Part shown: positions 1-58,127 of the stretch, piece after piece
Layout of the letters: every line of letters begins with the position of its first letter
How positions within the stretch are numbered: the first letter of the stretch is position 1
Source of the DNA: an uncultured Candidatus Saccharibacteria bacterium
GTDB taxonomy: Bacteria; Patescibacteriota; Minisyncoccia; UBA6257; Colwellbacteraceae
DNA length: 64,000 nt
Assembly: GCA_964559765.1 (NCBI GenBank)
Contig: CAZLHU010000002.1
Coordinates: 10,075-74,074, forward strand
Direction of reading: 5' to 3'
Notes under the pieces: generated by a model
Told to the model about the DNA's origin: nothing
Database searches by the model: none
The model's input: only the letters and a program-made list of their open reading frames with translations
Program-made: the position numbers and the translations under genes

Positions 1-3000
1 CAGACGTGGTGAATGTCCCATCGGATGAATAACCCGTAGCGGACGCGTTAGTAGCATAACCGGCGTAGTAGATCAGAGTGTTCGACGGCAGGCTGTTGAA
101 AGGCATCGTAAAAACTCCGGTCGAGGTTCCTCCTTGGGGAGAACAATTTGACCTAGGGGCTGGCGACGTTCCCCAGCAGATGCCGATAGCGGTTAAAGAT
201 GAGCCGCCGTTAGATGTGACATTGGCGCCCAGTACTGCGCTGTTATATGTAATTGAACTGGAGGTTGGAGAAGTGACCGTTGGACTGCTTGGCTGAGTCT
301 GCTCGCTACCCGCGGTGCTAAACGAAGGTTCGTTCTGTTGATATTTCCTGATAGCTACCCAATCAAAAATCGCATACTGAGTGGTCCACCATCCATAGTT
401 TCCGATATCCAGATAGAACCGCTGCGATGTCGGCGTAGTGTATGACGAAGTGCCGCTTATGGTCTCGGTTGCCCCATCCGATTGCCTGACCCTCGTATAT
501 TTCATATACCCCGTATTTGCAACGACGCCCCAGCTCACTCGCTTCCAAGTGTTCCACCAGTTTCCGATTGAACCTACGGCAGCTGAATTCATGCTGCTGC
601 CGCTATAAGCGTAGCCCAGCCAGTTCTGTCCGCTATCGGTATATTGGACGCCGTCGCCGCTGTAGGCATCCGTATCATCCATATTAGCGTACAGCCATGA
701 ACCCCCCTCAGAACGGATGGTTGAAGTGGACACATTCGACGCTATATAACACCAGGCATAGTTCTGGCCACTGCTACTGCCATTGCTGTCGTACATGAGC
801 GACTCGACCGCATATCCGCTGGCTGGCAGGAAAGTATTCGCGGCAATGACGTGGCTGTAGTCCGTGTTCACGTTGGTGATCGTAAGCTGGTTGCCGGACA
901 CAGCGACTCCGCCGTCATTCCCCGTAGCGACGCCGCCGTTAGTGTACGTCTGGAAAAACCATGTACCGGTGTTTATCGATGTACCGGGGAAATTATCGAA
1001 GATGAGGAAAGTATTCGTGCCGTTGGAGGCATTGGTCGCAGATGAATTCCCGTAATACAGATATATAGACTGGTTAGAGCCCAGATCTGCGGAAACGTTC
1101 ACCCAAACAGTCGCCACGCGATTGGGCGAAGATCCGGTCACCGTTTCCACCCAGAAAGGCAATACCGTCTGGCCATCTGACGCAGTAAACTGGAAGTCTC
1201 CTCCGACATTGATGGCTGTCGGGAACGATGCAGAATGCCCGCCGATGTTGAAGCTGGCACCGCTAGATCCGGAACTCTCGCCCACCAATAACTTTATCTG
1301 ATAGTTCGGTCCCGCTCCGGTCTGTCCGGTGATGTTAATCATTTTCCTGTAGTTCCATCCGCTACTTAGCCAAGACGCCCCTCCGCCGCTGCTGGTCACT
1401 GTGAATCCGCTGGCCAAAGTTCCAGTCTGCATGCTCGGGTTAGTAACCACCACATTCCATGCTCCAGCTACAGCTCCGGTGATCGGACAAGAACCGGACG
1501 ACAGCGTAGTGGAGTTAGTGAAGGTGAAGCCCGTGCAATTTATATTGGATTGTCCGCTCATGGTAAGCGCGACCGTAGCGCCGGACACGAAGTTAGTTCC
1601 GCTGATTGAAGATATGGATATAGACCCTGTATTAGCACCGGTCGTAGGTGAAATCGCGGTAACCGTGGGCGTAGAAGTAGAATAGGCTATCGTCAAACTA
1701 CCATTAGTTTGGCCAGCAGAACCTGCACCTTGAATATTGAAAGTGTTGGTAAGAGATGAGGATAGGTAGCTTGAACCTCCTCCTCCTGCCCCAACGCCAT
1801 TGTTGTTCGAACCGCCGCCTGCGCCTCCTCCGCCATAATATCCTCCACCACCTCCTCCGCCTCCGTAGTAGGTACCATTACCTCCATTACCTCCGACAGC
1901 TACGCCGCCAGCAGTGCCGTTATTCGAGCTATCTCCCGTACCGGCTGTTCCGCCGGCCGATTGCGTTCCGCCGCCTCCGCCGGTGACAAGACCGAAACTC
2001 ATGCCAGCCTGTCCGGATGTGCCGCCTCCCGCAGCGCCAGGCCAAACAGTGTCGTAAGACCAACCGCCAGGATCTCCACCCCCTCCTCCAGCGACGAGTA
2101 TCGCAGTTCCCTGTGAAAAAGTATTAGCCGTGCCGAACCAGGTCATTCCTCCTCCTCCTCCGCCGCCGTAATCGTTGCCGCAACATGTTTGATAGCCTCC
2201 CGTACCGCCGCCTCCATATCCGGCCGTGCCTCCGCCGCCTGATCCGGTATTAGCCTGGCCTCCGGCGCCGCCGACAGAGTAATAGTAAGTTGTTCCAGGG
2301 GTCACGGAAAGAGTCCCCGCAGCCAGTCCGCCCGTCCCGCCGGTAAGGCCGCCGAAGTAAACGTTGCCGCCGCCGCCTGCGCCATTGGCGATAAGATTTA
2401 TAGATGTAACTCCGGTCGGGACAACCCAGCTTTGGACCGATCCAGTGTAAGAAAGATTAGCCACAGCGATTCCTGATGAATTGTAATAAATTGTGACGCT
2501 GCCGTTACCAGTATTAACGCCTTGGGCCAAAGTAACACTGGTCGCCGATCCGCTTGCGTATGAAGATCCTCCTCCCCCAGTCCCGCCGCCGGCATAGCTT
2601 GTAGTACTTGATCCGCCTCCTCCGCCTCCGTAGTATCCTCCGCCTCCTCCGCCTCCGGCGTTATTATATGCGCCTTCGCCAGCCCCTCCAGCTCCGCCCT
2701 GACCAGCAGAGCCAGTAGCTCCATTAGTCGCGCCTCCGCTTCCGCCAGCGCTTAATGTCGCTCCTCCTCCGGCATTTCCATATCCAGAACTCGTTCCCGA
2801 TACTCCCTGTATTCCACCGGCTGGCGTAGTTCCGCCTCCGCCGCCCCATTGATGGTTGGTCTGACTGTTCCAAGCTCCGCCTCCTCCGCCTCCGGCTACC
2901 ACGATAGACGTGCCCTGGGAGAAGGTGCTCGCTGTGCCGAACCAGGTCATTCCGCCTCCGCCGCCCGATGTGTAATAAGAGCCGTCAGATCCTCCGGCAC

Positions 3001-3403
3001 CGCCGCCTCCGTATCCGGCCGTGCCGGCCGTGCCAACCGGTACGCCCGTACCGCCTTGGCCGCCGACATTCATGTAGTAGGTCGTTCCAGGTGTCACTGC
3101 CAAAGTGGCCGTGACCAATCCTCCGTATCCGCTGTCCGTAGTATATTGCCCCGAGGCAGCTGAACCTTCGCCTCCTTGGGCGCCTGCCACGACTATTGTT
3201 ATAGAAGTGACTCCCGTCGGTACGACCCAACTAGTTGGGCTCCCCGTGTAGCCGAAAGTTATCGAAGCGGCTTTGGCTTGGTTGGTCGAATTAAATGCGA
3301 TAAGGCCTACGGCCAGAACCAACACGGATATAACTATGAGGGAACCAAAACGACTCTTCTTGCTTATTTTTAGCTTAGGCAATTTAGACATTATGGCTCC
3401 CAT
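1..3403 (-). CDS. Giant cell-surface protein, partial in window (ATG at 3401-3403; ORF runs past position 1; >=1134 aa). N-terminal anchor helix, two tandem glycine-rich domains, an IPT/TIG-like Ig domain, a DUF2341-like domain and a lectin-like C-terminal region
   Basis: I translated the minus strand codon by codon from 3403 down to position 2 and found one frame with no stop. It is missing from the ORF track because it has no in-window stop. Repeated motif: VPTGVTSI..GAxGG..TPGTTYY..GGGGGGMTWFGTAxTFSQGT. Later motif: NYQIKLLVGESSG..VLPFWVETV..IYLYYGN. Confidence 0.7.
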   Translation of the reverse strand, partial: MGAIMSKLPKLKISKKSRFGSLIVISVLVLAVGLIAFNSTNQAKAASITFGYTGSPTSWVVPTGVTSITIVVAGAQGGEGSAASGQYTTDSGYGGLVTATLAVTPGTTYYMNVGGQGGTGVPVGTAGTAGYGGGGAGGSDGSYYTSGGGGGMTWFGTASTFSQGTSIVVAGGGGGGAWNSQTNHQWGGGGGTTPAGGIQGVSGTSSGYGNAGGGATLSAGGSGGATNGATGSAGQGGAGGAGEGAYNNAGGGGGGGYYGGGGGGSSTTSYAGGGTGGGGSSYASGSATSVTLAQGVNTGNGSVTIYYNSSGIAVANLSYTGSVQSWVVPTGVTSINLIANGAGGGGNVYFGGLTGGTGGLAAGTLSVTPGTTYYYSVGGAGGQANTGSGGGGTAGYGGGGTGGYQTCCGNDYGGGGGGGMTWFGTANTFSQGTAILVAGGGGGDPGGWSYDTVWPGAAGGGTSGQAGMSFGLVTGGGGGTQSAGGTAGTGDSSNNGTAGGVAVGGNGGNGTYYGGGGGGGGYYGGGGAGGGSNNNGVGAGGGGSSYLSSSLTNTFNIQGAGSAGQTNGSLTIAYSTSTPTVTAISPTTGANTGSISISSISGTNFVSGATVALTMSGQSNINCTGFTFTNSTTLSSGSCPITGAVAGAWNVVVTNPSMQTGTLASGFTVTSSGGGASWLSSGWNYRKMINITGQTGAGPNYQIKLLVGESSGSSGASFNIGGHSASFPTAINVGGDFQFTASDGQTVLPFWVETVTGSSPNRVATVWVNVSADLGSNQSIYLYYGNSSATNASNGTNTFLIFDNFPGTSINTGTWFFQTYTNGGVATGNDGGVAVSGNQLTITNVNTDYSHVIAANTFLPASGYAVESLMYDSNGSSSGQNYAWCYIASNVSTSTIRSEGGSWLYANMDDTDAYSGDGVQYTDSGQNWLGYAYSGSSMNSAAVGSIGNWWNTWKRVSWGVVANTGYMKYTRVRQSDGATETISGTSSYTTPTSQRFYLDIGNYGWWTTQYAIFDWVAIRKYQQNEPSFSTAGSEQTQPSSPTVTSPTSSSITYNSAVLGANVTSNGGSSLTAIGICWGTSPAPRSNCSPQGGTSTGVFTMPFNSLPSNTLIYYAGYATNASATGYSSDGTFTTS

Positions 3404-3423
3404 AATCTGTTGCAATAATTATA

Positions 3424-4035
3424 CTACTTATGAAAGCCTAAATCCGCCGGATTATTATCCCCAGAAACCCGCTTCACCGATCCTCCATTTTTTTCGAACT
3501 CATAGCGCGATTCAGAAACGTCTTTGGACAGCTCAACGGTCTTCTTAGGCAGGTCGTTGCGCTTTATTCTCCATTTGGACCAGTAGTCTATAACCAAACG
3601 GCTGTCGCCGAAGATGCTTTTAACCTTCTCCTTTTTAGCTATTTTAAGCGCGTAGCTCAAAGCAAGCAGCTCCCCGTAATTATTGGTTGCTGACTTATCC
3701 TTGATCAGATGTTTTCCGAAAGAATTTACTGTCTTTTTCGGCAGCGCTTTGTGCAACAAATTGACCCCGTTGGCGTCGGTTACGCTTATCTCCACGCCAT
3801 TGCCCCTGCCGGTCCCGGCGTCAAAATATATGCCGGGAGCCAATTGCTTGTTCGCCTTCAACTCATAGTTAGCTCCTTTAGCCAACCATCCCCTAGCCTC
3901 TTCTTCGTCTTTAAAGCCCTTAAAGCGCGCACCCACGACGCCCTTTACCTTGCTTTCGCATATCCTCCATTCATCGGTCACGCCCTTCTGCCCCCCAGGG
4001 ATAAAATATGCGTAGAATTTGTTCTTTGTGGCCAT
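3424..4035 (-). CDS. rnhA: Ribonuclease H1 with N-terminal RNA/DNA hybrid-binding (caulimovirus VI-like) domain
   Basis: N-terminus KFYAYFIPGGQKGVTDEW..GARFKGFKDEEEARGWL matches the RNase H1 hybrid-binding domain signature. C-terminal half has the RNase H-like DxG...TNNxGEL...DS motifs. Confidence 0.75.
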   Translation of the reverse strand: MATKNKFYAYFIPGGQKGVTDEWRICESKVKGVVGARFKGFKDEEEARGWLAKGANYELKANKQLAPGIYFDAGTGRGNGVEISVTDANGVNLLHKALPKKTVNSFGKHLIKDKSATNNYGELLALSYALKIAKKEKVKSIFGDSRLVIDYWSKWRIKRNDLPKKTVELSKDVSESRYEFEKNGGSVKRVSGDNNPADLGFHK

Positions 4036-42328: not shown

Positions 42329-42976
42329 CTAAATGCCAGTGAAGTTGGCGTATATGCCGGCGGCATGGGGCCCGGCCAAAATCTGGAATATAGCGGAGGA
42401 CACTACGAATATGTATTGGGAGAAGAAGAATAGGAACAGCAGCACCAGTATAAGGCCGTATAAGCCCATATTTTCCATCATCCGGCTTAATCGGGGCGAA
42501 ATAAGGCTTATAAGCTTGGAACCATCCAGGGGTGGGATCGGCAATATATTGAAGACGGCCAGGATTATGTTCAGCATTATCACCATCCCTAATAGGGCTA
42601 TAGCGGTCGTGGGAAGAAGCGACCCGAGCAGCCTCACGATTATAGCGAATACCGCCGCAATGGATATGTTCGATATGGGTCCGGCGAGCGCCACCTTAAG
42701 CGGTCCGTACTTCGGATCTTTGTATAATTTATATGGATTGTACGGGACAGGCTTCGCCCACCCGATTACAGGTAGCCCGCTTATAGCCAAGACCAAAGGG
42801 AGGAGCACTGAACCTATTGGATCCAGGTGCTTCAAGGGATTCAGGGTCAGGCGCCCCGCATTCTTGGCGGTATCGTCCCCCAGGCTCAAAGCCACTACGC
42901 CATGGGATATCTCGTGGATCATCACGGAGAAGAGCAATACTATTAGTTGAAATATAAGTATAATTATGGTATTCAT
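42329..42976 (-). CDS. Stand-alone M50/site-2-protease-family zinc metalloprotease (start at MNTIIIL, internal ATG)
   Basis: HEISH in the first TM helix and LDGSK in a later helix. The upstream track extension would overlap rpmB. Confidence 0.65.
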   Translation of the reverse strand: MNTIIILIFQLIVLLFSVMIHEISHGVVALSLGDDTAKNAGRLTLNPLKHLDPIGSVLLPLVLAISGLPVIGWAKPVPYNPYKLYKDPKYGPLKVALAGPISNISIAAVFAIIVRLLGSLLPTTAIALLGMVIMLNIILAVFNILPIPPLDGSKLISLISPRLSRMMENMGLYGLILVLLFLFFFSQYIFVVSSAIFQILAGPHAAGIYANFTGI

Positions 42977-42986
42977 AATCGGTAAA

Positions 42987-43199
42987 ATGAAACAGTGCGA
43001 AATATGCGGGAAGGGTTCGATAATGCGCGGGCACAGGATTAAGCTCCGTGCGACTAAGTATAACCCACAGCCCAAAACACGGAAATACCCGAACATTCAG
43101 AAAGCCGTAGGGCTTGATGGTCGCAGGGTCAATGCCTGCACCCAGTGCATTAAGACTCTAGGTAAGGCAGCTAGGATCGCGATTCCTGCAAAAGCGTAG
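42987..43199 (+). CDS. rpmB: 50S ribosomal protein L28 (zinc-ribbon form)
   Basis: MKQCEICGKGSIMRGHRIKLRATKYNPQPKTRKYPNIQ..VNACTQCIK motif. Confidence 0.75.
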   Translation: MKQCEICGKGSIMRGHRIKLRATKYNPQPKTRKYPNIQKAVGLDGRRVNACTQCIKTLGKAARIAIPAKA

Positions 43200-43293: not shown

Positions 43294-43364
43294 CGGGCTG
43301 TCGTATAATGGTAGTGCACAAGGCTGGGGGTCTTGTAGTCTGGGTTCGATTCCCAGCAGCCCGA
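43294..43364 (+). tRNA. tRNA-Pro (anticodon GGG); CCA not encoded
   Basis: Manual fold. Acceptor CGGGCTG/CAGCCCG (C1:G72, A73, typical of bacterial tRNA-Pro). Anticodon loop CTGGGGG with G37. T-arm CTGGG-TTCGATT-CCCAG. Confidence 0.75.
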
Positions 43365-43405
43365 CATAGTGGGAACTCCAAATAAAGAAACTTAGTCGAT
43401 TAGGC

Positions 43406-44008
43406 TTAGTTATTTGTTTCGATATTAGTGAATACCACAAGCCGATTGGAATAGCTCTTCTGGGCAGCGTTCCAAGTGCCTTCGCATGTAATCAGGTTGA
43501 GATGGGCTTGCCCGTCATTTGAATAGAAAACATCTGAGGCGTCGCCGTTTTGGTCATATAACCTAGATCCGCTCACGACAAACGTGGTGGTCGCCCCTTG
43601 TTCGTCTATAACGTATACTTTGTCCCCTTTTTGCAATTTATATAAATCGTCGAACACCGCCCATATGCCGTCCTTCCACCCCTCATGCCCAGCGATGACG
43701 GCACTGCCATCTTCCCCTGGTCGCGGCCCTAGATCAAACCACACCGTGCTGGTTGGACCCACCGGCACGCCCATTGCCCCCTGTGGCGTAAGGCCAACAT
43801 CCCCTATGGGGGCATCGACGTTCATTTTCGGAATTTTGAGTCGAACCGGGAGTCCTAATATGTTCTGTTGCAAGCTTTGCGGGACCTGGCTAGCAACCGG
43901 AGACGCCTGCTCGGATGGGCCTTTAAGGAGCAAAATAGACGCCAAACAGACAACCCCAACAACGGCGACAGCAACCAGCAACCATTTTAACAAAGTCTTA
44001 AACCGCAT
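43406..44008 (-). CDS. Sortase-family transpeptidase (membrane-anchored)
   Basis: N-terminal TM helix, catalytic His (AGHEGW) and the LNLITCEG (TLxTC) cysteine motif. Confidence 0.8.
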   Translation of the reverse strand: MRFKTLLKWLLVAVAVVGVVCLASILLLKGPSEQASPVASQVPQSLQQNILGLPVRLKIPKMNVDAPIGDVGLTPQGAMGVPVGPTSTVWFDLGPRPGEDGSAVIAGHEGWKDGIWAVFDDLYKLQKGDKVYVIDEQGATTTFVVSGSRLYDQNGDASDVFYSNDGQAHLNLITCEGTWNAAQKSYSNRLVVFTNIETNN

Positions 44009-44085
44009 GGATTTTTAGAAAGTCTATGTATAGAAATACCGCTTTCGACGTTATTCTATCACGCCAATGATTATGGCCACGCTCT

Positions 44086-44529
44086 CTATCCAGCTGGTTT
44101 TTCTTCCTTGGCTGGTTTATTCTTCGCCTCCTCGAGGAATTTTTTGACCTCTGCGACGAACTCTTCGTTACTGACGCCTTTCTGGATATAGTTCGTTACG
44201 CCTACATCCTTCATCCAGTTTTCCGCTTCAATGGACAAGTCAGAGTTCGTGAGAAACGCAATAGGGATATCAGCCGCGGGAGAACCTGGTTCGTTCCTGA
44301 TAAGATCGGCTGTTTTAAAACCATTACTACCAGGCATATTTATATCGAGCAAAATAAGATCGGGGTGGAATCTGCGCGCCATTTCCCGCCCAAGGTCGCC
44401 GTTTTCGGCATAGATGACCTCATAACCGGCCGATCCAAGCAGGCTGCCGAAAAGCCGCCGGCTCGTGGGATCGTCGTCGACTATTAAGATGTGTTTAGTG
44501 GTCGCTTTGTCTTTAATTACCTCATCCAT
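44086..44529 (-). CDS. Single-domain response-regulator receiver (CheY-like) with Lys/Glu-rich tail (start at MDEVIKDK)
   Basis: ILIVDDDPTSRRL..DLILLDINMPG..K in the canonical positions. Confidence 0.75.
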   Translation of the reverse strand: MDEVIKDKATTKHILIVDDDPTSRRLFGSLLGSAGYEVIYAENGDLGREMARRFHPDLILLDINMPGSNGFKTADLIRNEPGSPAADIPIAFLTNSDLSIEAENWMKDVGVTNYIQKGVSNEEFVAEVKKFLEEAKNKPAKEEKPAG

Positions 44530-44560
44530 GGTTTTATCCTTTATTTTATAATTTATTTTA

Positions 44561-44950
44561 TTATACAACCTTAGCGTCAAGAATTCCTCTAACTTTTTTC
44601 ACGATATCGCGGTACTCCCAATCGCTCTTAATCATAAAATCGAGAATCCCTATTTTTTTCGCCCGGGCGATGGTAGCGGAATCCTGAGAATTACTCCACA
44701 TGATGACGCGTGCATTTTTACCCCACTTGTCCTTACGAAGATTTTCAAGGAAATAAAAGCCGTCGGTATCGGGCATGAGATTATCGACAAGAATAAAGTC
44801 GGGGTGATTCTTTAGCGCGCTATCTAGGCCTTCTTTACCGTTCGTCGCCTTAAATACAGAGAAACCTTCATACGTAAACTTATCCGAAATGCCGTTCAGG
44901 ATGGATAGCTCGTCTTCAATGATTAACACTTTTCTTTGTGGCGTATCCAT
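44561..44950 (-). CDS. Single-domain response-regulator receiver (CheY-like)
   Basis: VLIIEDE..DFILVDNLMPDTDG motif; 129 aa, no output domain. Confidence 0.8.
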   Translation of the reverse strand: MDTPQRKVLIIEDELSILNGISDKFTYEGFSVFKATNGKEGLDSALKNHPDFILVDNLMPDTDGFYFLENLRKDKWGKNARVIMWSNSQDSATIARAKKIGILDFMIKSDWEYRDIVKKVRGILDAKVV

Positions 44951-44955
44951 ATTTT

Positions 44956-47154
44956 TTATTTTAATACCAACCTTCTGGTACCTTCTTTTTTCTTCATGCC
45001 TACAAGAGGGATTGTAACATAAAACGTCGATCCTTTATTTTCCGTCGATTCAAACCAGATTTTACCGCCCGTCTTTTCTATCGTTTCCTTGATAATATAC
45101 AATCCAAGTCCCGTGCCTTCAGGGTCCTTTACGCGTGCGTTGTCGGCCCTAAACATTTTAGTGAAGATCTTTGATTGCGCATCTTTGGGGATTCCATAAC
45201 CAGTATCAGCGACCGAAACAAGAATATTGGGTCCATCCTTTTTCATCGTTAGTGTGATACTCCCCTCTGGAGGGGTGTACTTTACCGCATTCGAAAACAA
45301 ATTCTGGAATATCATCCGGAGAATATTTAAATCAGCGTTAATTGGGGGAAGGTCTTTTTCGAGATTCTTATTTATAAGCAGTTTTTTATCATTAATATTC
45401 ACCTCGAGATCCTTGAGCGCCCCTTCTGCCACATTCTGAAGATTTACCTGTTCGGGTTCGACAACAAACACTCCCAAATCGACCCTAGAAACGTTGAGGA
45501 GTGCTGTAATTAAATTGATCATACGATCGTTGGAATTTTTTATTTCCGTCAGGTATTCACGCTGCTTGTCATTCAATGGCCCGGCATCTCCATCGATAAG
45601 CATGCCTGTGTATCCTTTGAGTGCTGTGAGAGGTGTGCGGAGTTGGTGTGAAGCGATAGAAACAAATTCATCTTTCGCCAGATCCAACGAACGCAATTCT
45701 TTGTTCGCTAATTCAACTTTTTCGGTTGTCGCAGCAAGTTGTTTCGCTTTAATATCGAGGTTTTTTGCAGTCACCAGTAACCTGCGCCGAACGCTTTCCC
45801 TTTCCTTGGCCGTTGTAGCAAGCTGCTTGGCCGTAACCACCAGCCTACTTCTCACGCTTTCCCTCTCCTTGGCAGTAGCAGCGAGTTGCTTGGCGGTAAC
45901 CTCTAATTTTTTTCGAACGCTTTCACGTTCTTTAGCCGTCGTAGCGAGCTTTTTGGCCGTGACCGCAAGCCTGTCTCTCACACTTTCTCTTTCCCTGGCA
46001 GTAACAGCAAGCTGCTTAGCTTTAAGTCGGAGCGTCTTTGCCGTCACTAACAATTTGCGCCTGACACTCTCCTTTTCCCTTGCAGTTGTGGCAAGATGCT
46101 TAGCGGTTATCACTAACTTATTTCTGACTTCTTCTCTTTCTTTGGCGGTTACGGCAAGTTTCCCTGCCGTCACAGCTAAGAGCTCCCTCGTTTTTTTTGT
46201 TTCGGTCACATCACGCGCAGCCGCGAACACGCCAAGCACATTACCTTTATTGTCTTTATAGACCGATGCATTATAGAGAACATCGATAAGCCTTCCATTT
46301 CTATGACGAATAGTAAGGGGGTAGTCAATAACCGATCCTGTTTTAAAAACTTGCTTATATCCCGCACGGGCTTTTTGGGGTTCGGTAAAATATTTTGAGA
46401 AATCAGTACCGATCAAATTCCCGCGCAACAAACCAGTTACCCGTCCCGTTGCCGCATTAACGTCAGTAATCTTTCCTTGCGGACTTATAACAACCAAGGG
46501 GTCGATGCCCGCCTCTATGAGACTGCGGGCGTACTGGTTTGTCAGTGCAATTTTCTCGGCAGTAGCGGCGAGCTGCTTGGCCCTAAGCCGAAGCGCCTCC
46601 GCTGTCACTGCCAGTTTACCCCTGATACTTTCACGTTCTTTAGCCGTCGTAGCGAGCTTTTTGGCCGTGACCGCAAGCCTGTCTCTCACACTTTCTCTTT
46701 CCCTGGCAGTAACAGCAAGCTGCTTAGCTTTAAGTCGGAGCGTCTTTGCCGTCACTAACAATTTGCGCCTGACACTCTCCTTTTCCCTAGCGACAGTAGC
46801 GAGTTGCTTAGCCTTAAGACGAAGATTTCTCGCCGTTACAAGCAGTTTGAGTCGAACATTTTCCCTTTCTTTTGCGGTCGTCGCAAGCTGTTTGGCTGTG
46901 ACCGCAAGTTGTTTGGCAACGACCTCTAATTTACGCCTGGCACTTTCCCTTTCACTAGCCGTCGTAGCGAGCTTTTTGGCCGTGACCGCAAGCCTGTCTC
47001 TGATGCTTTCCCTTTCTTCGGCAGTTATAGCGAGATGCTTAGCCGTCACTGCCAACTTACTCCTAACACCCTCCTTTTTCTTTGCCAAAACTTTAAGTTT
47101 AAGGATTGCGTTGTTGGCCCTGGAAGCAACTATTTTTTGTCCGTATTTTTTCAT
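44956..47154 (-). CDS. Cytoplasmic sensor histidine kinase: two ~8-9-unit arrays of a 22-aa coiled-coil repeat (LAVTAKKLATTAKERESVRxKL) flanking a PAS domain, then HisKA (ASHQLRTPL) and HATPase_c
   Basis: No TM helices. H-box IASHQLRTPLTAL; N, G1 and G2 boxes (NAVKYT, DTGYGIP, GTGLGL). Confidence 0.85.
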   Translation of the reverse strand: MKKYGQKIVASRANNAILKLKVLAKKKEGVRSKLAVTAKHLAITAEERESIRDRLAVTAKKLATTASERESARRKLEVVAKQLAVTAKQLATTAKERENVRLKLLVTARNLRLKAKQLATVAREKESVRRKLLVTAKTLRLKAKQLAVTARERESVRDRLAVTAKKLATTAKERESIRGKLAVTAEALRLRAKQLAATAEKIALTNQYARSLIEAGIDPLVVISPQGKITDVNAATGRVTGLLRGNLIGTDFSKYFTEPQKARAGYKQVFKTGSVIDYPLTIRHRNGRLIDVLYNASVYKDNKGNVLGVFAAARDVTETKKTRELLAVTAGKLAVTAKEREEVRNKLVITAKHLATTAREKESVRRKLLVTAKTLRLKAKQLAVTARERESVRDRLAVTAKKLATTAKERESVRKKLEVTAKQLAATAKERESVRSRLVVTAKQLATTAKERESVRRRLLVTAKNLDIKAKQLAATTEKVELANKELRSLDLAKDEFVSIASHQLRTPLTALKGYTGMLIDGDAGPLNDKQREYLTEIKNSNDRMINLITALLNVSRVDLGVFVVEPEQVNLQNVAEGALKDLEVNINDKKLLINKNLEKDLPPINADLNILRMIFQNLFSNAVKYTPPEGSITLTMKKDGPNILVSVADTGYGIPKDAQSKIFTKMFRADNARVKDPEGTGLGLYIIKETIEKTGGKIWFESTENKGSTFYVTIPLVGMKKKEGTRRLVLK
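45920..46080 (-). repeat. 161-bp perfect direct repeat, copy A (inside the histidine-kinase gene)
   Basis: Identical to 46628..46788. Offset 708 bp = 236 codons, in frame. Confidence 0.85.
46628..46788 (-). repeat. 161-bp perfect direct repeat, copy B (inside the histidine-kinase gene)
   Basis: Identical to 45920..46080. Confidence 0.85.
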
Positions 47155-47315
47155 ATATAAATTTCGCTTTATAATTTAATTTTTATTCCGGCTGTCCTTA
47201 ATATAATTATATCATTAGATTTCTTGGCCTTATTATTCCTACTTCCAAGAAGCCCCGCTTGTGAGCGAGGCTTCTCATTATCTCCGCAAGATACATCTAT
47301 TGACTTGGTCTCCGA

Positions 47316-47462
47316 TTATTTCCCCCTTATGATCCGTATTAGGATGACAATGATGGCAACGACGAGAAGAACATGAATCAGCCATCCCAATATGGGGAAA
47401 AAGATGAGCCCGACAAGCCACAAGACCACTAGCACAAATCCGACAGTTAGAAGTATGTCCAT
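47316..47462 (-). CDS. 48-aa two-helix membrane peptide, lmo0937-like family (too short for the ORF track)
   Basis: MDILLTVGFVLVVLWLVGLIFFPILGWLIHVLLVVAIIVILIRIIRGK; translated manually. Confidence 0.5.
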   Translation of the reverse strand: MDILLTVGFVLVVLWLVGLIFFPILGWLIHVLLVVAIIVILIRIIRGK

Positions 47463-47503
47463 CTTTGGTTTTAATGGTCTAACACCCCTACGTGATACTT
47501 ATG

Positions 47504-49360
47504 CTAAATCTTGCGCTTTTTTATGACTACGACCGACGAAACTGACGCCAATACCAAAAGGCCGACCAATGCTATGACATTCCAGGGAGTTTCATTGCTC
47601 TGAGGAGGATATCCTGTATTCGGAAGCTTCGGAGCGGCTACGGCGACAGCTACTGTCGATGAGTGGGTAACCGTAAAGCCGTTGGCGCTGCCCTGGGCCG
47701 TAGCGGTGTTCGTGGTCGTCTGGCTCAAATTCATCTGGCAAGAGTAAGTCCACGTTTCGCTTGGATCAAGCAACCCGTTGCTGTTAGCGTCGCCAGTAGG
47801 ACTGCTTATTTGGGAGCACTTGTTATCGACAAGCGTTACGTTGCTAAGCGGCACGGTGCCTGGATTGGTCACCAGATAGGTGTACGTAACCGATCCCCCG
47901 CCAGCGGGCAGGAATAATGGCGCAGGCACTTTTACCAAATTGATCAATGGCGGCACAACCGAAGACCCGACGACGACCGTAGCATTGGCTGTATCAGAGG
48001 CGATCAATCCGTTTGCCTTTCCGGTCGCGGTGACTGTGTCACTGGTTGTCTTAGAGAGCGTGGCAGTGCAACTATAGCTCCATTTATCACCCACACCGAG
48101 CGTTGAATTGGGATTTATACTCCCGGAAATGGTGACGGGACTGCACTCATTGTCGGTTACCGTCACATTGGTCATGGGAACTATCCCAACATTCGATACT
48201 GTGTAATTGTATGTGACAGTCCCCGGTCCAGAGGGTAGAGCCAGAGGGCTGGGTATCTTCGTGACGTTTATCAGTGGCGGCACGGGCACTACCGCTAAAG
48301 CCACATCACTGTTGGTCAGATAGCAAACGTAATTATGACTGCTGCCGGCCGTAACGGTTATCTGACCATTGGCATTACAATCGCCGGAAAAAGTGGCCTT
48401 ATACTTAGAAATATTATTGGTCTCGGTAACTTTATAGGTACCCGAAGCCAAATATACTGTATTACCAGAGGTTACGGGCGTTCCGCTTACAAATAAGGGG
48501 AAATTGGCAGCAGTCGACGTTCCGCCATTATCGTTTATGACCTCCTTGAAAATAGTGACACTGTTTAGACTACTGCCCAGCGAAGATCCACCGGACGTGG
48601 TAACTGGAGCTGAACACGTCGGTACAATTATATGGTCCGTATCACCGGTCGTAATTGTCCCGTTAAGCAGCGATATTGCGCTTCCTGTCCACGTGGTGTT
48701 GTCGCCGACGGTAATGGCGTTATTATTGTCTATGTCCGTTCCGATGAACGTCGTATTGGCGGCAAGCGTCGTAGCCGCAGTCGCCGTCCAAAAGACATTG
48801 CAGGCTGATGCGCCATTAGACAATGTGATAACTGAGCCGGCATCCGAAGTTAGAGCGCCATCGGCTCTAAAGATATATGTCCCGCTGCCGTTCAGGGTTA
48901 CATTGCCTCCAACATCCATGGCTCCCGTACTGCAATACACTCCAGGAGTATAGACGCCTACGGTGCCGGGATGCGACGTGTCAGTGGCAAGGTCCACACT
49001 CCCACCTACCAGAGTGAAGGTGAACGTACATGGCTGACTAGCAATGCCGGTAGATACATTTGATAGGGCATTCGATGCGTCTGTAAGCGCCTGAGAATAA
49101 GGAGCTACTGAGCCGTAGTATGTATTCTGCGCACCCAACGAAGGTTTAACGCTCGGTCCAGTCGTGAATCCTACGTCCCCATTGATCGACGTGGCCGCCC
49201 AAGAGTTGCTATAGGTGCTGCCGGCTAGGACGCCATAGGTCGACGCCATTCCAAGAGATGGAGATGTTTGCGCGAATGCAGTAACCGGCCCAGTCAGGCC
49301 GAATATGAGAGATACGGCAAACGCCGTTGTTATTACTAATACGTTATTAAATCTTTTCAT
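47504..49360 (-). CDS. Cell-wall-anchored surface protein: signal peptide, ice-binding-like (DUF3494-type) domain, two DUF11 repeats, LPNTG sorting signal with hydrophobic helix and KKRKI tail
   Basis: N-terminus MKRFNNVLVITTAFAVSLIFG..AFAQ. DUF3494-like ASTYGVLAGSTYSNSWAATSINGDVGF. DUF11-like NVTVTDNECSPVTISG..WSYSC. C-terminus KLPNTGYPPQ..VIALVGLLVLASV..KKRKI. Confidence 0.8.
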   Translation of the reverse strand: MKRFNNVLVITTAFAVSLIFGLTGPVTAFAQTSPSLGMASTYGVLAGSTYSNSWAATSINGDVGFTTGPSVKPSLGAQNTYYGSVAPYSQALTDASNALSNVSTGIASQPCTFTFTLVGGSVDLATDTSHPGTVGVYTPGVYCSTGAMDVGGNVTLNGSGTYIFRADGALTSDAGSVITLSNGASACNVFWTATAATTLAANTTFIGTDIDNNNAITVGDNTTWTGSAISLLNGTITTGDTDHIIVPTCSAPVTTSGGSSLGSSLNSVTIFKEVINDNGGTSTAANFPLFVSGTPVTSGNTVYLASGTYKVTETNNISKYKATFSGDCNANGQITVTAGSSHNYVCYLTNSDVALAVVPVPPLINVTKIPSPLALPSGPGTVTYNYTVSNVGIVPMTNVTVTDNECSPVTISGSINPNSTLGVGDKWSYSCTATLSKTTSDTVTATGKANGLIASDTANATVVVGSSVVPPLINLVKVPAPLFLPAGGGSVTYTYLVTNPGTVPLSNVTLVDNKCSQISSPTGDANSNGLLDPSETWTYSCQMNLSQTTTNTATAQGSANGFTVTHSSTVAVAVAAPKLPNTGYPPQSNETPWNVIALVGLLVLASVSSVVVIKKRKI

Positions 49361-49545
49361 TTGTTTTTATTTGTTTTTATTCGACTTATTGATTCCAGCG
49401 AACCACGTAGCAGCCGACCACTAATACGGATTCGTAAAAGCCATTGCAATAATTATACCATCCCCTACTTTTTTAGGCCGTATACAAAGACGGGGCTGTG
49501 AATAAAAAGACAGACCATCAGCCAACTCCTTGGATTTCTAATAAA

Positions 49546-49567
49546 ATTAGGCTTTGCCTAGCCTAAT
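49546..49567 (-). terminator. Intrinsic terminator after the toastrack gene
   Basis: attaggc-tttgccta-gcctaat, followed on the minus strand by UUUAUU. An adjacent 12-nt palindrome ccccaattgggg lies at 49586-49597. Confidence 0.5.
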
Positions 49568-49603
49568 AGCTATGACGTTTATAAACCCCAATTGGGGCCT
49601 TGC

Positions 49604-50110
49604 TTAATTGACTATTTCTATGCCGCCGAATACTACAGAACCTCTTAGGTTAAGGGTTACTTTACCCTCCCCTTTCTCGGTTTGGTCGTTTATCCCACCG
49701 AATATAGCGGAACTCTTGGAATTGACTGTCCAATCTTTAGGAATTACCAGTTTCATGCCGCCGAATACCGCCGAGAACTCTAGATCCACGGCCCTTGCTT
49801 CTGTTTTAACTTTGCTGAGGTCTATCTTTCCTCCGGCGAATATCATGGATACGCTTCCTCCTTTGAAGTTATTGGAAGAAACATCCTTATACAACGGACT
49901 GAAAATAGCCACTTCATTAAGATTGTCCTCGGTGGATGCCGTGGCTGTATACCCCTTCCAGTCGCCGTGGCGCCCGCCGCCGCTTAAAATCCTTACCCCG
50001 ATCGCTATGATCAACAGTGCTATAAGAAACTTGAACAGGGACAACCCGACCAGCGCGCTGAGACCGATTGCGATTATTATTACGCCGGCGATTAATCTTC
50101 CTCTGTTCAT
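49604..50110 (-). CDS. Toastrack-domain protein (LiaF / DUF2154 / DUF4097-like C-terminal beta domain) with one TM pair (start at MNRGRL)
   Basis: Repeated FGG/AGG beta-strand motifs (IFAGGKIDL..AVFGGMKLV..AIFGGI..VVFGGIEI). The upstream 126 codons of the track ORF belong to the overlapping gene region. Confidence 0.6.
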   Translation of the reverse strand: MNRGRLIAGVIIIAIGLSALVGLSLFKFLIALLIIAIGVRILSGGGRHGDWKGYTATASTEDNLNEVAIFSPLYKDVSSNNFKGGSVSMIFAGGKIDLSKVKTEARAVDLEFSAVFGGMKLVIPKDWTVNSKSSAIFGGINDQTEKGEGKVTLNLRGSVVFGGIEIVN

Positions 50111-50607
50111 TTGTTTATATTTATTTGTATCTGTTGTGGCTGCATAATTAGCGAATTTACGCTTGGAGGCAAGGAATTGGCGACAACCGGATCCACTTTC
50201 GCCAACCCATAGACTATCACGACTACGCAAAGGGCTATGGCCACGAGCGCCACCAAGATTCTGCCGACCGAAGTTCTGCCAAGCAGTATGTCCAATCCCC
50301 AGATGATCAGTATCACCGGCCAGAAAGGAACGAGCGCCACCCAGAATGCATGGGATATCAACCCGAAGCCATTGAGTAATAAAATCACACCTACGAGCAA
50401 GATCAAAAGCCCCCACAACATGCTTCCGTGATGATGGGGATGGTTGTTTCTCCACTCTTCCTTGTGGCACTCCCTCTCTTCTCGCCATTTATCGCGCTCA
50501 TCCCATTTGGAGCTACCACCAAACCGACGCGAGTCGATTTCCTCCCCGAATATATGTATATGCGACTGGGAAGAATTATTATCCTTATTTTCCTCTGCGG
50601 ACATCAC
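50107..50607 (-). CDS. Four-TM membrane protein with acidic/His-rich N-terminus (HKEEWRNNHPHHHG); membrane partner of the toastrack protein
   Basis: Its stop overlaps the downstream start as ATGA. Together this is a LiaF-like architecture split in two. Confidence 0.6.
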   Translation of the reverse strand: MMSAEENKDNNSSQSHIHIFGEEIDSRRFGGSSKWDERDKWREERECHKEEWRNNHPHHHGSMLWGLLILLVGVILLLNGFGLISHAFWVALVPFWPVILIIWGLDILLGRTSVGRILVALVAIALCVVVIVYGLAKVDPVVANSLPPSVNSLIMQPQQIQININK

Positions 50608-50695: not shown

Positions 50696-51271
50696 ATGCT
50701 TTCATATACGGAACTGAAAAAGGGCGTGCTCTTCGCTTTTGAGGGAGATCCATACGAAGTTGTTGATTCGGAGTTTTTGAGGATGCAACAAAGGAAAGCT
50801 GTGGTCAAAACCAAGATCCGCAACCTCATAACCGGAAAGCTGCTCGACAGGACCTGGCAGGCCAGCGACTATTTCGAAGAGGTGGAGATAGAGCGAAAAG
50901 AGGCAGTGTTCATCTATAAGAACCGCGGCGAATGCTGGTTCAACTTTGCCAATGATACAAAGAACCGCTTCAAGTTCGACGAAGCGGCAATACCGGATAT
51001 AGCTCCTTTTCTCAAGGCCAATATGACGGTCACCGCATGGATATTCCGCGATAAGGTAATAAAGATAGAGATACCGATAAAGATGGATTTCGAAGTGATC
51101 GATGCCCCACCAGCCGTCAAAGGCAATACCGCACAGGGCGGCACTAAAATAGTGACTATCGAGGGCGGTGCAAAGATATCAGTACCATTGTTCGTCAACG
51201 CCGGCGATTACATCAGGGTTAACACCCAGACCAAGGAGTATTACGAGCGAGCCGATAAGCCGAAGGCTTAA
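50696..51271 (+). CDS. efp: Elongation factor P
   Basis: 191 aa; KGVLFAFEGDPYEVVDSEF; three OB-fold layout. Confidence 0.85.
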   Translation: MLSYTELKKGVLFAFEGDPYEVVDSEFLRMQQRKAVVKTKIRNLITGKLLDRTWQASDYFEEVEIERKEAVFIYKNRGECWFNFANDTKNRFKFDEAAIPDIAPFLKANMTVTAWIFRDKVIKIEIPIKMDFEVIDAPPAVKGNTAQGGTKIVTIEGGAKISVPLFVNAGDYIRVNTQTKEYYERADKPKA

Positions 51272-56591: not shown

Positions 56592-58127
56592 CTATTCCTC
56601 CGGATCCTCTTTTGATTCGGAGTCGGGATTTATGGGCGCCTCGTCCGGCTTAATATCACCATCCATAGATCCGTCTGCTTTATCGGAAGGACCGACGGAT
56701 TTGCTCAAAAGTTTTCGGAGCTCGTCCAGATCGGCGGCCTTGCGCACTTTGCGGTGCGGAGATTCCTCTTCCGCATTGGATTTGAGTATGTCGAGATGCT
56801 GCTCGGTGCGTCGCTCTGCCTTATCGCTCACATCGCTGCTTCCGGAATGCAGCTCCTCGTCGATCTTTTTGTCGACAGCCTCCTTCGGCGATCCGTAGCG
56901 CGTGCGGCTCATCTGTATTATGTCCTCGGACAGCGGGCTTTCCGGCAATGGCGGCGGGGGCAGGGTTTGCGCCGAGAATGGCTTGGAGGCCGTTCCATCT
57001 ATGAGAAGTTTTATATAAACGTGATATTTGCTCAGATTGACCAGGTCATTCTCGGTGAAGGTAGGCATGAATTCCCTCTCCAAGAATCTGGCGTCATCCG
57101 CTCCGACCCTGAATACGACCATCGTGCCGACGTTGCCGAAAACCGCGTCGCGAACTTTGCTGTTTTGTCCGGTGATCAGCTGTGCGATGTATTGATGGGC
57201 CAATACGAGATTCAGTCTGTATTTGCGGGCCTCGGAGAGTATGTTGGCGAATGATTCCGTAGAGAAGTTCTGGAACTCGTCGATGTATAAATAAAAGTCT
57301 TCTCTCTCGGCCTCAGGTATATCCACGCGGCTCATTGCTGCAAGCTGCATCTTAGTGACGAGCATCGCCCCAAGCAGTTCGGAATTATCCTCGCCCACCC
57401 TTCCCTTTGACAGGTTGGCGATGAATATCTTCTTCTCGTCCATAATCTTCCTTAGATCTATGGTCGAATGCGGCTGGCCGATGATCCTGCGGATTATGGG
57501 GTTGGACACGAACTGTCCGACTTTGTTCAATATTGCGGCTGTGGCTTCGGTCTCAAATCGCTGGGTATAGCGAGAGAACTCGTTGATCCAGAAGTTCTTC
57601 ACCACCGGGTCGGAAAGATGGCTCACCACCTCATTGCGATACGCCTTGTCGGTAAGTATGCGCATGACCCCGAGAAGAGTGGACCCGGGATATTCAAGCA
57701 GTGAAAGCAATGTGTTGTTGAGGATGTACTCCATCCTGGCAGACCAGGCATCGATCCAGATCTTCTTGAACACGCCCATCAAGCCGGAGGCCACAAGATG
57801 ATGGTACTCCTCCCCTACTCGCTCGAGCGGGTTAAACCCGACAGGATGTTCGACGTCAGCCGGATTGAAGTAGACCACGTCTTCCACGCGCTCCGGCGGA
57901 ACGAATTTGAGTATGCGCTCGGCGAATTCGCCGTGAGGATCGATTACGCCAACCCCGCGACCGGCTAGAATGTCGGCGACCACCATATTCTCCATCAGGG
58001 TCGTCTTGCCGCTCCCGGTTTTACCTATCACATAGACATGCTGTCTGCGGTCGATTTTCTTTATGCCGAAGACCACATTTTTATTATGTGCGGTCGTCTG
58101 GCCGATAACTGTTAAGTCCTTGTCCAT
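56592..58127 (-). CDS. TraG/TraD/VirD4 (TrwB)-family type-IV-coupling-protein-like P-loop ATPase, soluble (no TM), acidic C-terminal tail
   Basis: Walker A VIGKTGSGKTT followed by GVIDPHGE (TrwB: VIVDPNGD). Walker B LYIDEFQNF. NLVLAHQYIAQL motif. Tail PDSESKEDPEE. Confidence 0.65.
   Translation of the reverse strand: MDKDLTVIGQTTAHNKNVVFGIKKIDRRQHVYVIGKTGSGKTTLMENMVVADILAGRGVGVIDPHGEFAERILKFVPPERVEDVVYFNPADVEHPVGFNPLERVGEEYHHLVASGLMGVFKKIWIDAWSARMEYILNNTLLSLLEYPGSTLLGVMRILTDKAYRNEVVSHLSDPVVKNFWINEFSRYTQRFETEATAAILNKVGQFVSNPIIRRIIGQPHSTIDLRKIMDEKKIFIANLSKGRVGEDNSELLGAMLVTKMQLAAMSRVDIPEAEREDFYLYIDEFQNFSTESFANILSEARKYRLNLVLAHQYIAQLITGQNSKVRDAVFGNVGTMVVFRVGADDARFLEREFMPTFTENDLVNLSKYHVYIKLLIDGTASKPFSAQTLPPPPLPESPLSEDIIQMSRTRYGSPKEAVDKKIDEELHSGSSDVSDKAERRTEQHLDILKSNAEEESPHRKVRKAADLDELRKLLSKSVGPSDKADGSMDGDIKPDEAPINPDSESKEDPEE

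Follow-up and report, generated by a model that had tools for sequence, protein, structure and literature searches.

The 64,000-nucleotide window analysed here (the whole stretch under study, contig CAZLHU010000002.1, positions 10,075 to 74,074, from an uncultured bacterium of the Patescibacteriota) carries, between a tRNA-Pro(GGG) gene and efp, a group of genes that are all located on the minus strand. They encode a sortase, two stand-alone receivers (REC1 and REC2), a soluble histidine kinase (HK), a membrane mini-protein of the DUF5670 family, an LPNTG-anchored surface protein and a pair of LiaF-like proteins (Table 1). Pfam, NCBIfam, ARAGORN and Rfam confirmed every gene listed in the initial annotation, coordinates included. 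This work addresses the segment that extends from the sortase gene to that of the LPNTG protein, and especially the relationship between the sortase, its putative substrate and the kinase/receiver cassette located between them. The genes of this cassette are tightly packed. Indeed, only 5 bp separate the kinase gene from REC1 and 77 bp separate REC2 from the sortase gene, and the spacing between REC1 and REC2 ranges from an 8-bp overlap to 31 bp depending on the start codon picked, upstream TTG codons at 44568 or 44580 being alternative starts for REC2. The homologues of both the sortase and the LPNTG protein derive from metagenome-assembled genomes (MAGs) of Paceibacterota, Minisyncoccia and other Patescibacteria.

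The sortase matches PF04203 with 77 bits (cut-off 26.6 bits) and displays a hydrophobic N-terminal segment as well as a His108/Cys175/Arg189 triad that does not vary among 19 homologues. Within NCBIfam, the sortase scores best against class F (NF033748), with 116.9 bits, below the 166-bit cut-off, and one of its homologues carries the NCBI name 'class F sortase'.

The window contains a single sortase and a single LPXTG-type open reading frame (ORF), which encodes the 618-aa protein. This protein consists of a signal peptide, a beta-helix head of the DUF3494 (ice-binding) type (about residues 40-250), three Ig-like beta-sandwich domains (about 266-352, 364-464 and 474-574, the last two belonging to DUF7507/CLIPPER_2) and an anchor made of LPNTG, a transmembrane helix and a KKRKI tail, the C-terminal end reading ...APKLPNTGYPPQSNETPWNVIALVGLLVLASVSSVVVIKKRKI. 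The Ice_binding domain PF11999 spans residues 44-237 (E=2.6e-19, 70.2 bits for a cut-off of 28.7), PF24346 is matched with E=7.7e-15 and the LPXTG anchor TIGR01167 with 18.5 bits (cut-off 15.9). The signal peptide, the head, the three beta-sandwich domains and the C-terminal transmembrane helix are also visible in an AlphaFold2 model built on a 27-sequence alignment, whose mean predicted local distance difference test score is 83.6 and exceeds 90 in the head. The modelled head superposes on solved DUF3494 ice-binding proteins with target TM scores of 0.74-0.85, and its sequence matches that of IBPv (5UYT) with E=1.3e-15. The public gene call for this protein (L001 8236-9651; 471 aa) starts 147 codons late and is therefore too short: the signal peptide and the beginning of the head are missing from it, and the 618-aa ORF is the correct one. 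Domain content and modelled fold together indicate that the protein is most likely a wall-anchored stalked adhesin.

DUF3494 is a large family in which ice-binding activity has been measured for only some members. The substrate shares the beta-helix fold and the flanking helix with IBPv, FfIBP (4NU2), EfcIBP (6EIO) and SfIBP_1 (6BG8), and the DUF3494 domain of SfIBP_1 is likewise joined to Ig-like domains. It differs from these proteins by its attachment through an LPXTG sortase signal, relatives using a PG_binding_1 domain instead. Indeed, a paralogue with an ice-binding-type head often adjoins the LPXTG protein in related genomes but ends with a PG_binding_1-like C-terminus (…GATxYFGxLTRAALAEFQ…) and not with an LPXTG signal (Table 1). 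Therefore, one type of head would be attached to the wall either covalently or non-covalently.

The relationship between the two genes was examined in 80 sortase loci, obtained by scanning one genome per species with an alignment of the sortase and by searching six-frame ORFs with the proteins of the window. Among the 66 loci with at least 1.5 kb of upstream sequence, 58 carry an ORF with an ice-binding-type head or CLIPPER domains (IBP) that ends no more than 1.2 kb upstream of the sortase gene on the same strand; in three of the eight exceptions, an HK-REC cassette separates substrate and sortase, as in the window. The C-termini of the partners are near-invariant and comprise (A/S)P(G/K/S)LPNTG[FL]PP, a hydrophobic segment and a basic K/R tail. 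In L168, the locus with the closest substrate homologue, the sortase gene starts 5 bp after the substrate gene, and two-component genes are absent. DUF5670 (43.6 bits to NF033488, cut-off 30) is found at 13 of the 80 loci, mostly right beside the substrate or the sortase gene. The conserved unit is thus an LPXTG substrate and a sortase with DUF5670 as a recurrent companion, the two-component genes lying between its members. This recurrent arrangement suggests that the neighbouring sortase would be the dedicated transpeptidase of the LPNTG protein.

In this respect, the unit resembles the dedicated sortase-substrate pairs of Gram-positive bacteria (SrtB-IsdC, YhcS-YhcR of B. subtilis, and the class E/F sortases of Actinobacteria), in which the gene of a membrane-anchored Cys transpeptidase bearing a His-Cys-Arg triad likewise adjoins that of a single protein, whose C-terminus comprises an LPXTG-type motif, then a hydrophobic stretch and a basic tail. 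It differs from them by its sub-threshold class F score, by the DUF3494 beta-helix head, by its restriction to Patescibacteria and by the kinase/receiver cassette found in between here. Literature searches on CPR (candidate phyla radiation) sortases, class F sortases, DUF3494 with LPXTG, and sortases with single-domain response regulators returned nothing specific, and how broadly the DUF3494-LPXTG-sortase module occurs among Patescibacteria seems undescribed in the open searchable literature. In several loci, a second pair adjoins the first one (L004, 7896-9979; L008, L021, L037, L054, L059, L060 and L066). One partner has CLIPPER domains only, with a variant signal such as GLPNNG or LPDTG that the transmembrane segment directly follows, and the other is a longer sortase, fused to PG_binding_1 where domains are annotated (L004/L005).

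The two-component genes found between DUF5670 and the sortase gene in the window are not peculiar to this genome. Repeat-type HK and REC genes are present within 3.4 kb of the sortase gene and on its strand in 7 of the 80 species-level genomes (~9%), and sortase homologues that are 64-70% identical and have unrelated flanks again adjoin an HK accompanied by one to three stand-alone receivers. These genes are arranged in at least four orders, namely IBP-x-HK-REC-REC-HK*-REC-REC-SRT, HK*-REC-IBP-SRT, REC-HK*-REC-IBP-SRT and SRT-REC-HK*-REC-REC (SRT, sortase). In the window, as in L010 and L016, the cassette separates the substrate gene from the sortase gene, and the gap between receiver and sortase is 4 bp in L006, L007 and L010 and ~20 bp in L016. 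In a reverse test, metagenomes were scanned with the kinase family as seed. An IBP or sortase gene was found near 5 of 13 loci with repeat-type kinases, compared with 1 of 37 loci with other kinases of the same core family (Fisher p=0.003). Since the linkage recurs in independent genomes and gene orders, it does not correspond to a chance neighbourhood; it is real but not obligatory.

The cassette is also the most conserved part of the module. Compared with L007, L013 and L016, identity reaches 90-91% for the HK core, 86-89% for REC1 and 81-83% for REC2, versus 62-70% for the sortase, ~45-54% for the substrate and 52% for ribosomal protein L28. At four-fold degenerate sites, identity with L007 is 0.46-0.58 for the HK and REC genes and 0.25-0.36 for sortase, substrate and L28, whereas with L013 and L016 the cassette is similar to the sortase. 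The latter result implies that the high protein identity would mostly reflect purifying selection, and the lower divergence of the cassette from L007 than that of its flanks hints at some room for cassette exchange.

The kinase possesses HisKA and HATPase_c domains (65.4 bits to PF00512 and 95.5 bits to PF02518) and retains its H, N, G1, F and G2 boxes (SHQLRTPL, NLFSNAVKYT, DTGYGI, FRADN and GTGLGL in the translation). Its input part is far less usual. Residues ~15-210 form 28 unbroken heptads without any register shift, a PAS domain occupies residues 211-322, and 25 further unbroken heptads (residues 328-503) lead directly into the phospho-acceptor His503 of the H-box. No transmembrane segment was found in the kinase, and no Pfam or NCBIfam model matched the arrays. 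The PAS domain gave only marginal sequence matches in the PDB (RpfR and PpsR, E>0.002) and lacks the Cys motif of LOV (light-oxygen-voltage) domains. The repeated unit, LAVTAKK-LATTAKE-RESVRRK, places Leu/Leu/Arg at position a, Thr/Thr/Val at d and Ala/Ala/Arg at e, and would thus give a wide but weak hydrophobic seam. At the DNA level, the gene carries tandem repeats of 63/126 nt, and two stretches of 185 nt located in the two arrays (45920-46104 and 46628-46812) are 96% identical, which indicates a probable recent intragenic duplication/recombination or gene conversion. In the PAS-less orthologues, the distance between a conserved N-terminal motif and the His is 173, 173, 250, 257 and 257 residues. 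As all these values equal 5 modulo 7, the length of the orthologues changes by whole heptads.

An exhaustive search with one array among 1.84 billion representative proteins retrieved 90 clusters at E<=1e-3 and 40 at E<=1e-10, the ten best matches being all histidine kinases of 442-1060 aa. The kinase therefore appears to belong to a small array family specific to histidine kinases, which seems undescribed in the open searchable literature. Its arrays share with the S-helix coiled coils of sensor kinases and with the heptad classes of chemoreceptors a continuous register into the DHp (dimerization and histidine phosphotransfer) helix and length changes by whole heptads. However, they are much longer (25-28 heptads in the window, hundreds of residues in the relative P0121), are built of a 21/28-residue unit and, in many members of the family, are the sole region upstream of the DHp. 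This family provides a natural series of signalling coiled coils that differ by whole heptads and could inform on the way signals travel along helices. An arrangement in which the two arrays form an antiparallel hairpin with the PAS domain at its tip was considered and dropped, since the arrays differ in length (28 versus 25 heptads) and the PAS-less orthologues have a single array. Two relatives deserve mention. P0128 (652 aa) carries an array-PAS-array organization on a different kinase core, of the SHDLRAPL type, which is otherwise attached to CHASE3 in L004, L006 and L016, and P0121 (1060 aa) combines an array of ~385 residues with two PAS domains. These relatives suggest that the array/PAS input module is portable between kinase cores.

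Both receivers match PF00072 only, without any second domain, and retain the D-D-D-T/S-K residues of the phospho-acceptor pocket. They had been described as orphan CheY proteins. Neither term is appropriate: the two genes directly follow a kinase gene, and the best solved relatives of the proteins are the receivers of RR468, DivK, Spo0F and PhoP (RR468 and DivK for REC2), so that nothing points specifically to CheY. Furthermore, the orthologues of REC1 (86-89% identity) directly follow a repeat-type HK in L006, L007, L013 and L016, and those of REC2 (81-83% identity) are found just upstream of a repeat-type HK in L006, L013 and L016. No che or pil gene was recognised in the annotated part of the window (42.3-58.1 kb). 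The cassette is comparable to systems that associate a HisKA kinase with phosphorylatable REC-only proteins (HK853-RR468, LovK-LovR, DivJ/PleC-DivK, KinA-Spo0F and CheA-CheY), among which LovK-LovR is reported to influence cell attachment. As REC-only proteins have no output domain, signalling would have to proceed through protein contacts. Unlike these systems, the window carries no Hpt (histidine phosphotransfer) protein, no che gene and no downstream DNA-binding regulator, two distinct receivers accompany one kinase, and the input of the kinase is a heptad array.

Regarding transcription, the initial annotation had proposed that kinase, receivers and sortase form one operon. The tight same-strand arrangement and the lack of any terminator-like hairpin on the minus strand from 49360 to 43406 agree with this proposal, whereas the sortase gene probably also has a promoter of its own. 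The window contains nine copies of the extended -10 motif TGnTAnAAT, none of them on the non-coding strand, and seven of these copies fall within the intergenic sequence, which represents only 6.2% of the window. The motif is probably the main promoter signature of the organism, needing no recognisable -35 box. Three sites precede the substrate, kinase and sortase genes (Table 1) and a fourth lies within the 3' end of the kinase gene, 61 nt ahead of REC1. The likely units would be substrate-DUF5670 and kinase-REC1-REC2 reading through to the sortase gene, with an additional sortase-proximal promoter. The independent transcription of the sortase gene, which the initial annotation had considered incompatible with its proposal, thus finds partial support in an intergenic-enriched motif located 45 nt upstream of the gene. 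In L006 and L007, by comparison, the 4-bp gap between receiver and sortase leaves no space for a promoter.

Taken together, these data make it rather likely that the segment 43406-49360 is one sortase-adhesin display module of patescibacterial (Paceibacterota-like) type, with an embedded kinase/two-receiver cassette. The 618-aa protein would be secreted, and the class-F-like sortase would cut it at LPNTG and join it covalently to the cell wall. The DUF3494 head would then be displayed on a stalk of three Ig domains, most likely as an adhesin, and DUF5670 would be a small membrane accessory. The ancestral gene order would have been substrate-DUF5670-sortase, HK-REC-REC having been inserted later between DUF5670 and the sortase gene. 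This direction is suggested by base composition, the HK and REC genes (GC 0.43-0.46) being AT-richer than those of the sortase and the substrate (0.51). The promoter of the kinase gene would drive HK-REC1-REC2 and read through into the sortase gene, which would also have a basal promoter. The kinase, whose only input elements are the PAS domain and the two heptad arrays, would sense a cytoplasmic cue and phosphorylate REC1 and REC2, and these would adjust through protein-protein contacts the amount of adhesin that is made or anchored. A genomic coupling of a protein-sorting transpeptidase with a two-component system is also described in the TIGRFAMs literature for the PEP-CTERM/exosortase system and its PrsK/PrsR proteins. 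In that case, however, the sorting enzyme is unrelated, and the receivers of the window lack an output domain, PrsR being a DNA-binding sigma-54 activator.

The Patescibacteria account for a large part of bacterial diversity, and their lifestyle is assumed to involve attachment to other cells. To our knowledge, little is known about their attachment machinery and its control beyond type IV pili. The module is a candidate adhesin system that is very widely conserved, and the presence inside it, in one clade, of a conserved kinase with two receivers offers a handle on surface regulation in bacteria with very few transcription factors.

Several observations weigh against a role of the cassette in the control of display. 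About 90% of the related sortase-substrate pairs lack the cassette, and, where the flanks are usable, more than half of the repeat-type HK cassettes are not close to any sortase or IBP gene. The cassette is thus optional and not obligate for sortase function, and its role may extend to a wider envelope or attachment programme. Furthermore, the predicted sortase promoter makes obligatory co-transcription less likely, the window offers no recognisable output partner, and the 80 loci were picked by similarity to the sortase of the window and share common ancestry, so that the counts do not represent independent events. According to a rival explanation, which the predicted sortase promoter also favours, the cassette would be a general patescibacterial signalling unit (related e.g. 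to envelope stress, growth state or type IV pili) residing in a gene-dense, often-rearranged neighbourhood of surface-protein genes and exerting no control on this sortase or adhesin. Among 63 metagenomic loci of at least 3 kb encoding a kinase with this core, 55 have one to three REC-only genes after it, mostly without any sortase or IBP gene, and the neighbours of the cassette in relatives are varied (ECF, i.e. extracytoplasmic function, sigma factors, small HTH or helix-turn-helix proteins, and PG_binding/fn3, VWA, SPFH and ABC proteins). The same neighbours can be read the other way, since they are mostly wall-associated (PG_binding_1, fn3 and VWA) or small HTH/sigma proteins, which fits a role in surface remodelling. 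Furthermore, a mere shared neighbourhood accounts poorly for a linkage kept through at least four gene orders, for the enrichment of repeat-type kinases near sortase or IBP genes, and for cassettes lying within a substrate-sortase pair with receiver-sortase gaps as short as a few base pairs. The absence of a dedicated function is thus a serious possibility but an unlikely one. A much bolder extension of the preferred reading treats the heptad-array kinases as sensors specific to Patescibacteria, in which the coil is an input tunable in length and the two receivers gate the display of an adhesin with an ice-binding fold. The coil would unzip or bind a partner upon a temperature or other physical cue, the gating would be post-transcriptional or operate via a partner-switching sigma factor, and the adhesin would attach to ice or to a host cell. 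In this complete form, the proposal is quite improbable. A device for cold adaptation, in which the head would bind ice, the wall anchor would make the cell ice-adhering and the coiled-coil kinase would sense temperature, is very improbable. The fold of the head and its similarity to IBPv speak for it, as do the names of several related MAGs, which suggest peat or palsa sites (SPRUCE, palsa), and the weak core of the arrays (Thr at d, Arg at every third a), as expected for a meltable coil. However, MAG names suggest that groundwater, lakes and other environments also harbour Patescibacteria in which this family is common, and ice-binding activity has been measured for only some DUF3494 proteins.

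The origin of the locus has also been interpreted differently, the initial annotation having considered that the tRNA adjacency was compatible with a horizontally acquired island. According to this hypothesis, the block extending from the sortase gene to the LiaF pair would have integrated at the 3' end of the tRNA-Pro(GGG) gene, which indeed points toward the block. The flanks of the module differ in more distant genomes, and the synonymous sites of HK/REC are less diverged from L007 than those of sortase, substrate and L28, which hints at an exchange of the cassette. The recommended comparison of composition gave a mixed result: GC at third codon positions is lower in the block than in the rest of the window (0.50 versus 0.58, p=0.004), this shift arising from the HK and REC genes, whereas neither GC nor codon-usage distance differs significantly. 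All values lie within the range of the window, and the GC of sortase and substrate genes is typical. No integrase or recombinase is encoded among the genes located at 43.3-50.7 kb, and a search of the 64-kb window for repeats of the tRNA-Pro 3' end with up to three mismatches retrieved only the tRNA gene itself. Among relatives, the nearest is a 99% identical fragment, the next-best sortase being 68% identical. In L006, L007 and L010, a tRNA-Pro(GGG) gene is again convergent with and directly beside the sortase gene, and L28 is close, although the sortase is only 66% and L28 only 52% identical. The persistence of the same junction in such diverged loci implies that the association of sortase and tRNA-Pro genes is ancient. 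An island integrated at this site is thus very improbable. The tRNA-Pro(GGG) gene appears to be a conserved neighbour and not an attachment site, and the comparison fits an old, rearrangement-prone module inside which the cassette was placed. This correction avoids labelling the locus as mobile DNA.

The relatives provide some clues about the output of the receivers. In a distant subgroup of cassettes (REC-HK*-REC), a conserved, divergent gene encoding an ECF-type sigma factor, which passes TIGR02937, is found alongside in 6 of 13 loci versus 1 of 37 for other kinases (p=0.0007). This sigma gene also flanks 8 of the 80 sortase loci, including some that lack a kinase. The divergent intergenic region beside it carries a direct repeat, ATTACA-N5-ATTACA, with an 11-bp period. 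Exact copies of this repeat give five matches in 4 of 167 loci, each beside that sigma gene, and degenerate copies are found in eight further loci (Table 1). The repeat is a candidate regulator-binding site or promoter element, and the association suggests that, in the genomes with this sigma factor, the output of the cassette would be transcriptional. An ECF sigma factor was rejected as the output in the window, since the 64 kb encode no homologue of the sigma factor and contain only 4 matches of the repeat for 4.5 expected, i.e. no enrichment. The partner would therefore have to be located elsewhere on the contig or be something else. The arrangement of these distant relatives, in which the ECF-type sigma gene is divergent from REC-HK*-REC and/or from the substrate-sortase pair, recalls ECF-coupled envelope systems such as PhyR-NepR-sigma EcfG, CseBC-sigma E, or sigma BldN with the chaplins and a class E sortase. 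Unlike these systems, the window encodes no sigma factor, neither an anti-sigma factor nor a PhyR-like sigma-mimic domain was seen, and the link is made by neighbourhood alone.

Table 1. Coordinates of genes, predicted promoter elements and related features in the window (positions of the 64,000-nt stretch) and in related loci (L numbers, positions within each locus)
Feature	Position	Strand	Remarks
tRNA-Pro(GGG)	43294-43365	+	ARAGORN and Rfam; convergent with sortase gene
Sortase, 200 aa, membrane-anchored, class-F-like	43406-44008	-	PF04203, E=1.4e-21
REC2, stand-alone receiver, ~147 aa from ATG at 44529	44086-44529	-	PF00072, E=1.3e-21
REC1, stand-alone receiver, 129 aa	44561-44950	-	PF00072, E=9.9e-20
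Soluble histidine kinase, 732 aa, PAS + HisKA + HATPase_c, repeat arrays	44956-47154	-	Pfam
DUF5670/lmo0937-family membrane mini-protein, 48 aa	47316-47462	-	PF18919, E=4.4e-11; NF033488
LPNTG-anchored sortase substrate, 618 aa	47504-49360	-	PF11999, PF24346, TIGR01167
LiaF-like_C protein	49604-50110	-	Pfam, sub-threshold
LiaF-TM protein	50107-50604	-	Pfam
efp	50696-51271	+	
TGnTAnAAT sites	5937, 13647, 43984, 44053, 45011, 47206, 49452, 55383, 58172	-	
Predicted extended -10, TGGTATAAT	49452..49460	-	92 nt upstream of substrate gene
Predicted extended -10, TGATATAAT	47206..47214	-	52 nt upstream of kinase gene
Predicted extended -10, TGATAGAAT	44053..44061	-	REC2-sortase 77-bp gap, 45 nt upstream of sortase start
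Exact ATTACA repeats	L042 8490-8506; L047 5555-5571, 5641-5657; L064 7975-7991; L110 10810-10826		
Degenerate ATTACA copies	L038, L048, L067, L085, L091, L094, L107, L113		
PG_binding_1-ended paralogues	L002 12429-13667; L004 444-1808; L015 6703-8019; L025 2540-3853; L060 3776-5050; L063 6675-7928; L066 6958-8238; L085 7052-8305		

The LiaF-like pair located beyond the substrate gene had been described as a toastrack pair. LiaF-like genes are indeed present, but this description is overstated: the first protein matches LiaF-TM (37.4 bits, cut-off 27), and only the second one has the C-terminal domain, LiaF-like_C, with a score (26.2 bits) below the cut-off of 29. Neither a LiaS-type kinase nor a DNA-binding LiaR is encoded beside the pair, the nearby kinase being a soluble HisKA-type protein and the receivers having no HTH. 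The pair was rejected as a part of the module, since phmmer detected no homologue beside any of the 80 sortase loci and a terminator-like hairpin (49567-49546), the only one of the region on the coding strand, lies between it and the substrate gene. It is thus best regarded as a separate transcription unit and a probable bystander.

In L168 (80-5908), the IBP-sortase pair is divergent from a type IV pilus operon (PilM, PilO-like, PilB, PilT). Between PilB and PilT, this operon encodes a 122-aa receiver-like protein (…LLNELFP…), which is probably a pseudo-receiver. A link between the cassette and type IV pili through this protein was considered and rejected, as it is only 23-26% identical to REC1 and REC2 and lacks the acceptor Asp.

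Elsewhere in the window, the first 3.4 kb are GC-rich (0.60) and appear 'gene-free' because they are occupied by a stop-free frame of more than 1139 aa (1-3410, minus strand) that runs off the left end. This frame begins with an N-terminal transmembrane or signal segment, is very rich in Gly, Thr and Ser, and probably encodes a giant secreted surface protein. Rfam searches of the whole window, with a permissive scan of positions 1-3500, retrieved two tRNAs and nothing else. Near the tRNA-Pro gene, a 77-aa L28-like gene (42966-43199, plus strand) overlaps the 5' end of the longest ORF of an M50 peptidase (42329-43096, minus strand); most of this overlap disappears with the shorter public call of the peptidase (215 aa). 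Finally, ~6 kb from the locus and among housekeeping neighbours, a gene located at 56592-58127 on the minus strand encodes a 511-aa protein with DUF87, T4SS-DNA_transf and TrwB domains, which resembles the coupling-protein ATPases of type IV secretion systems.

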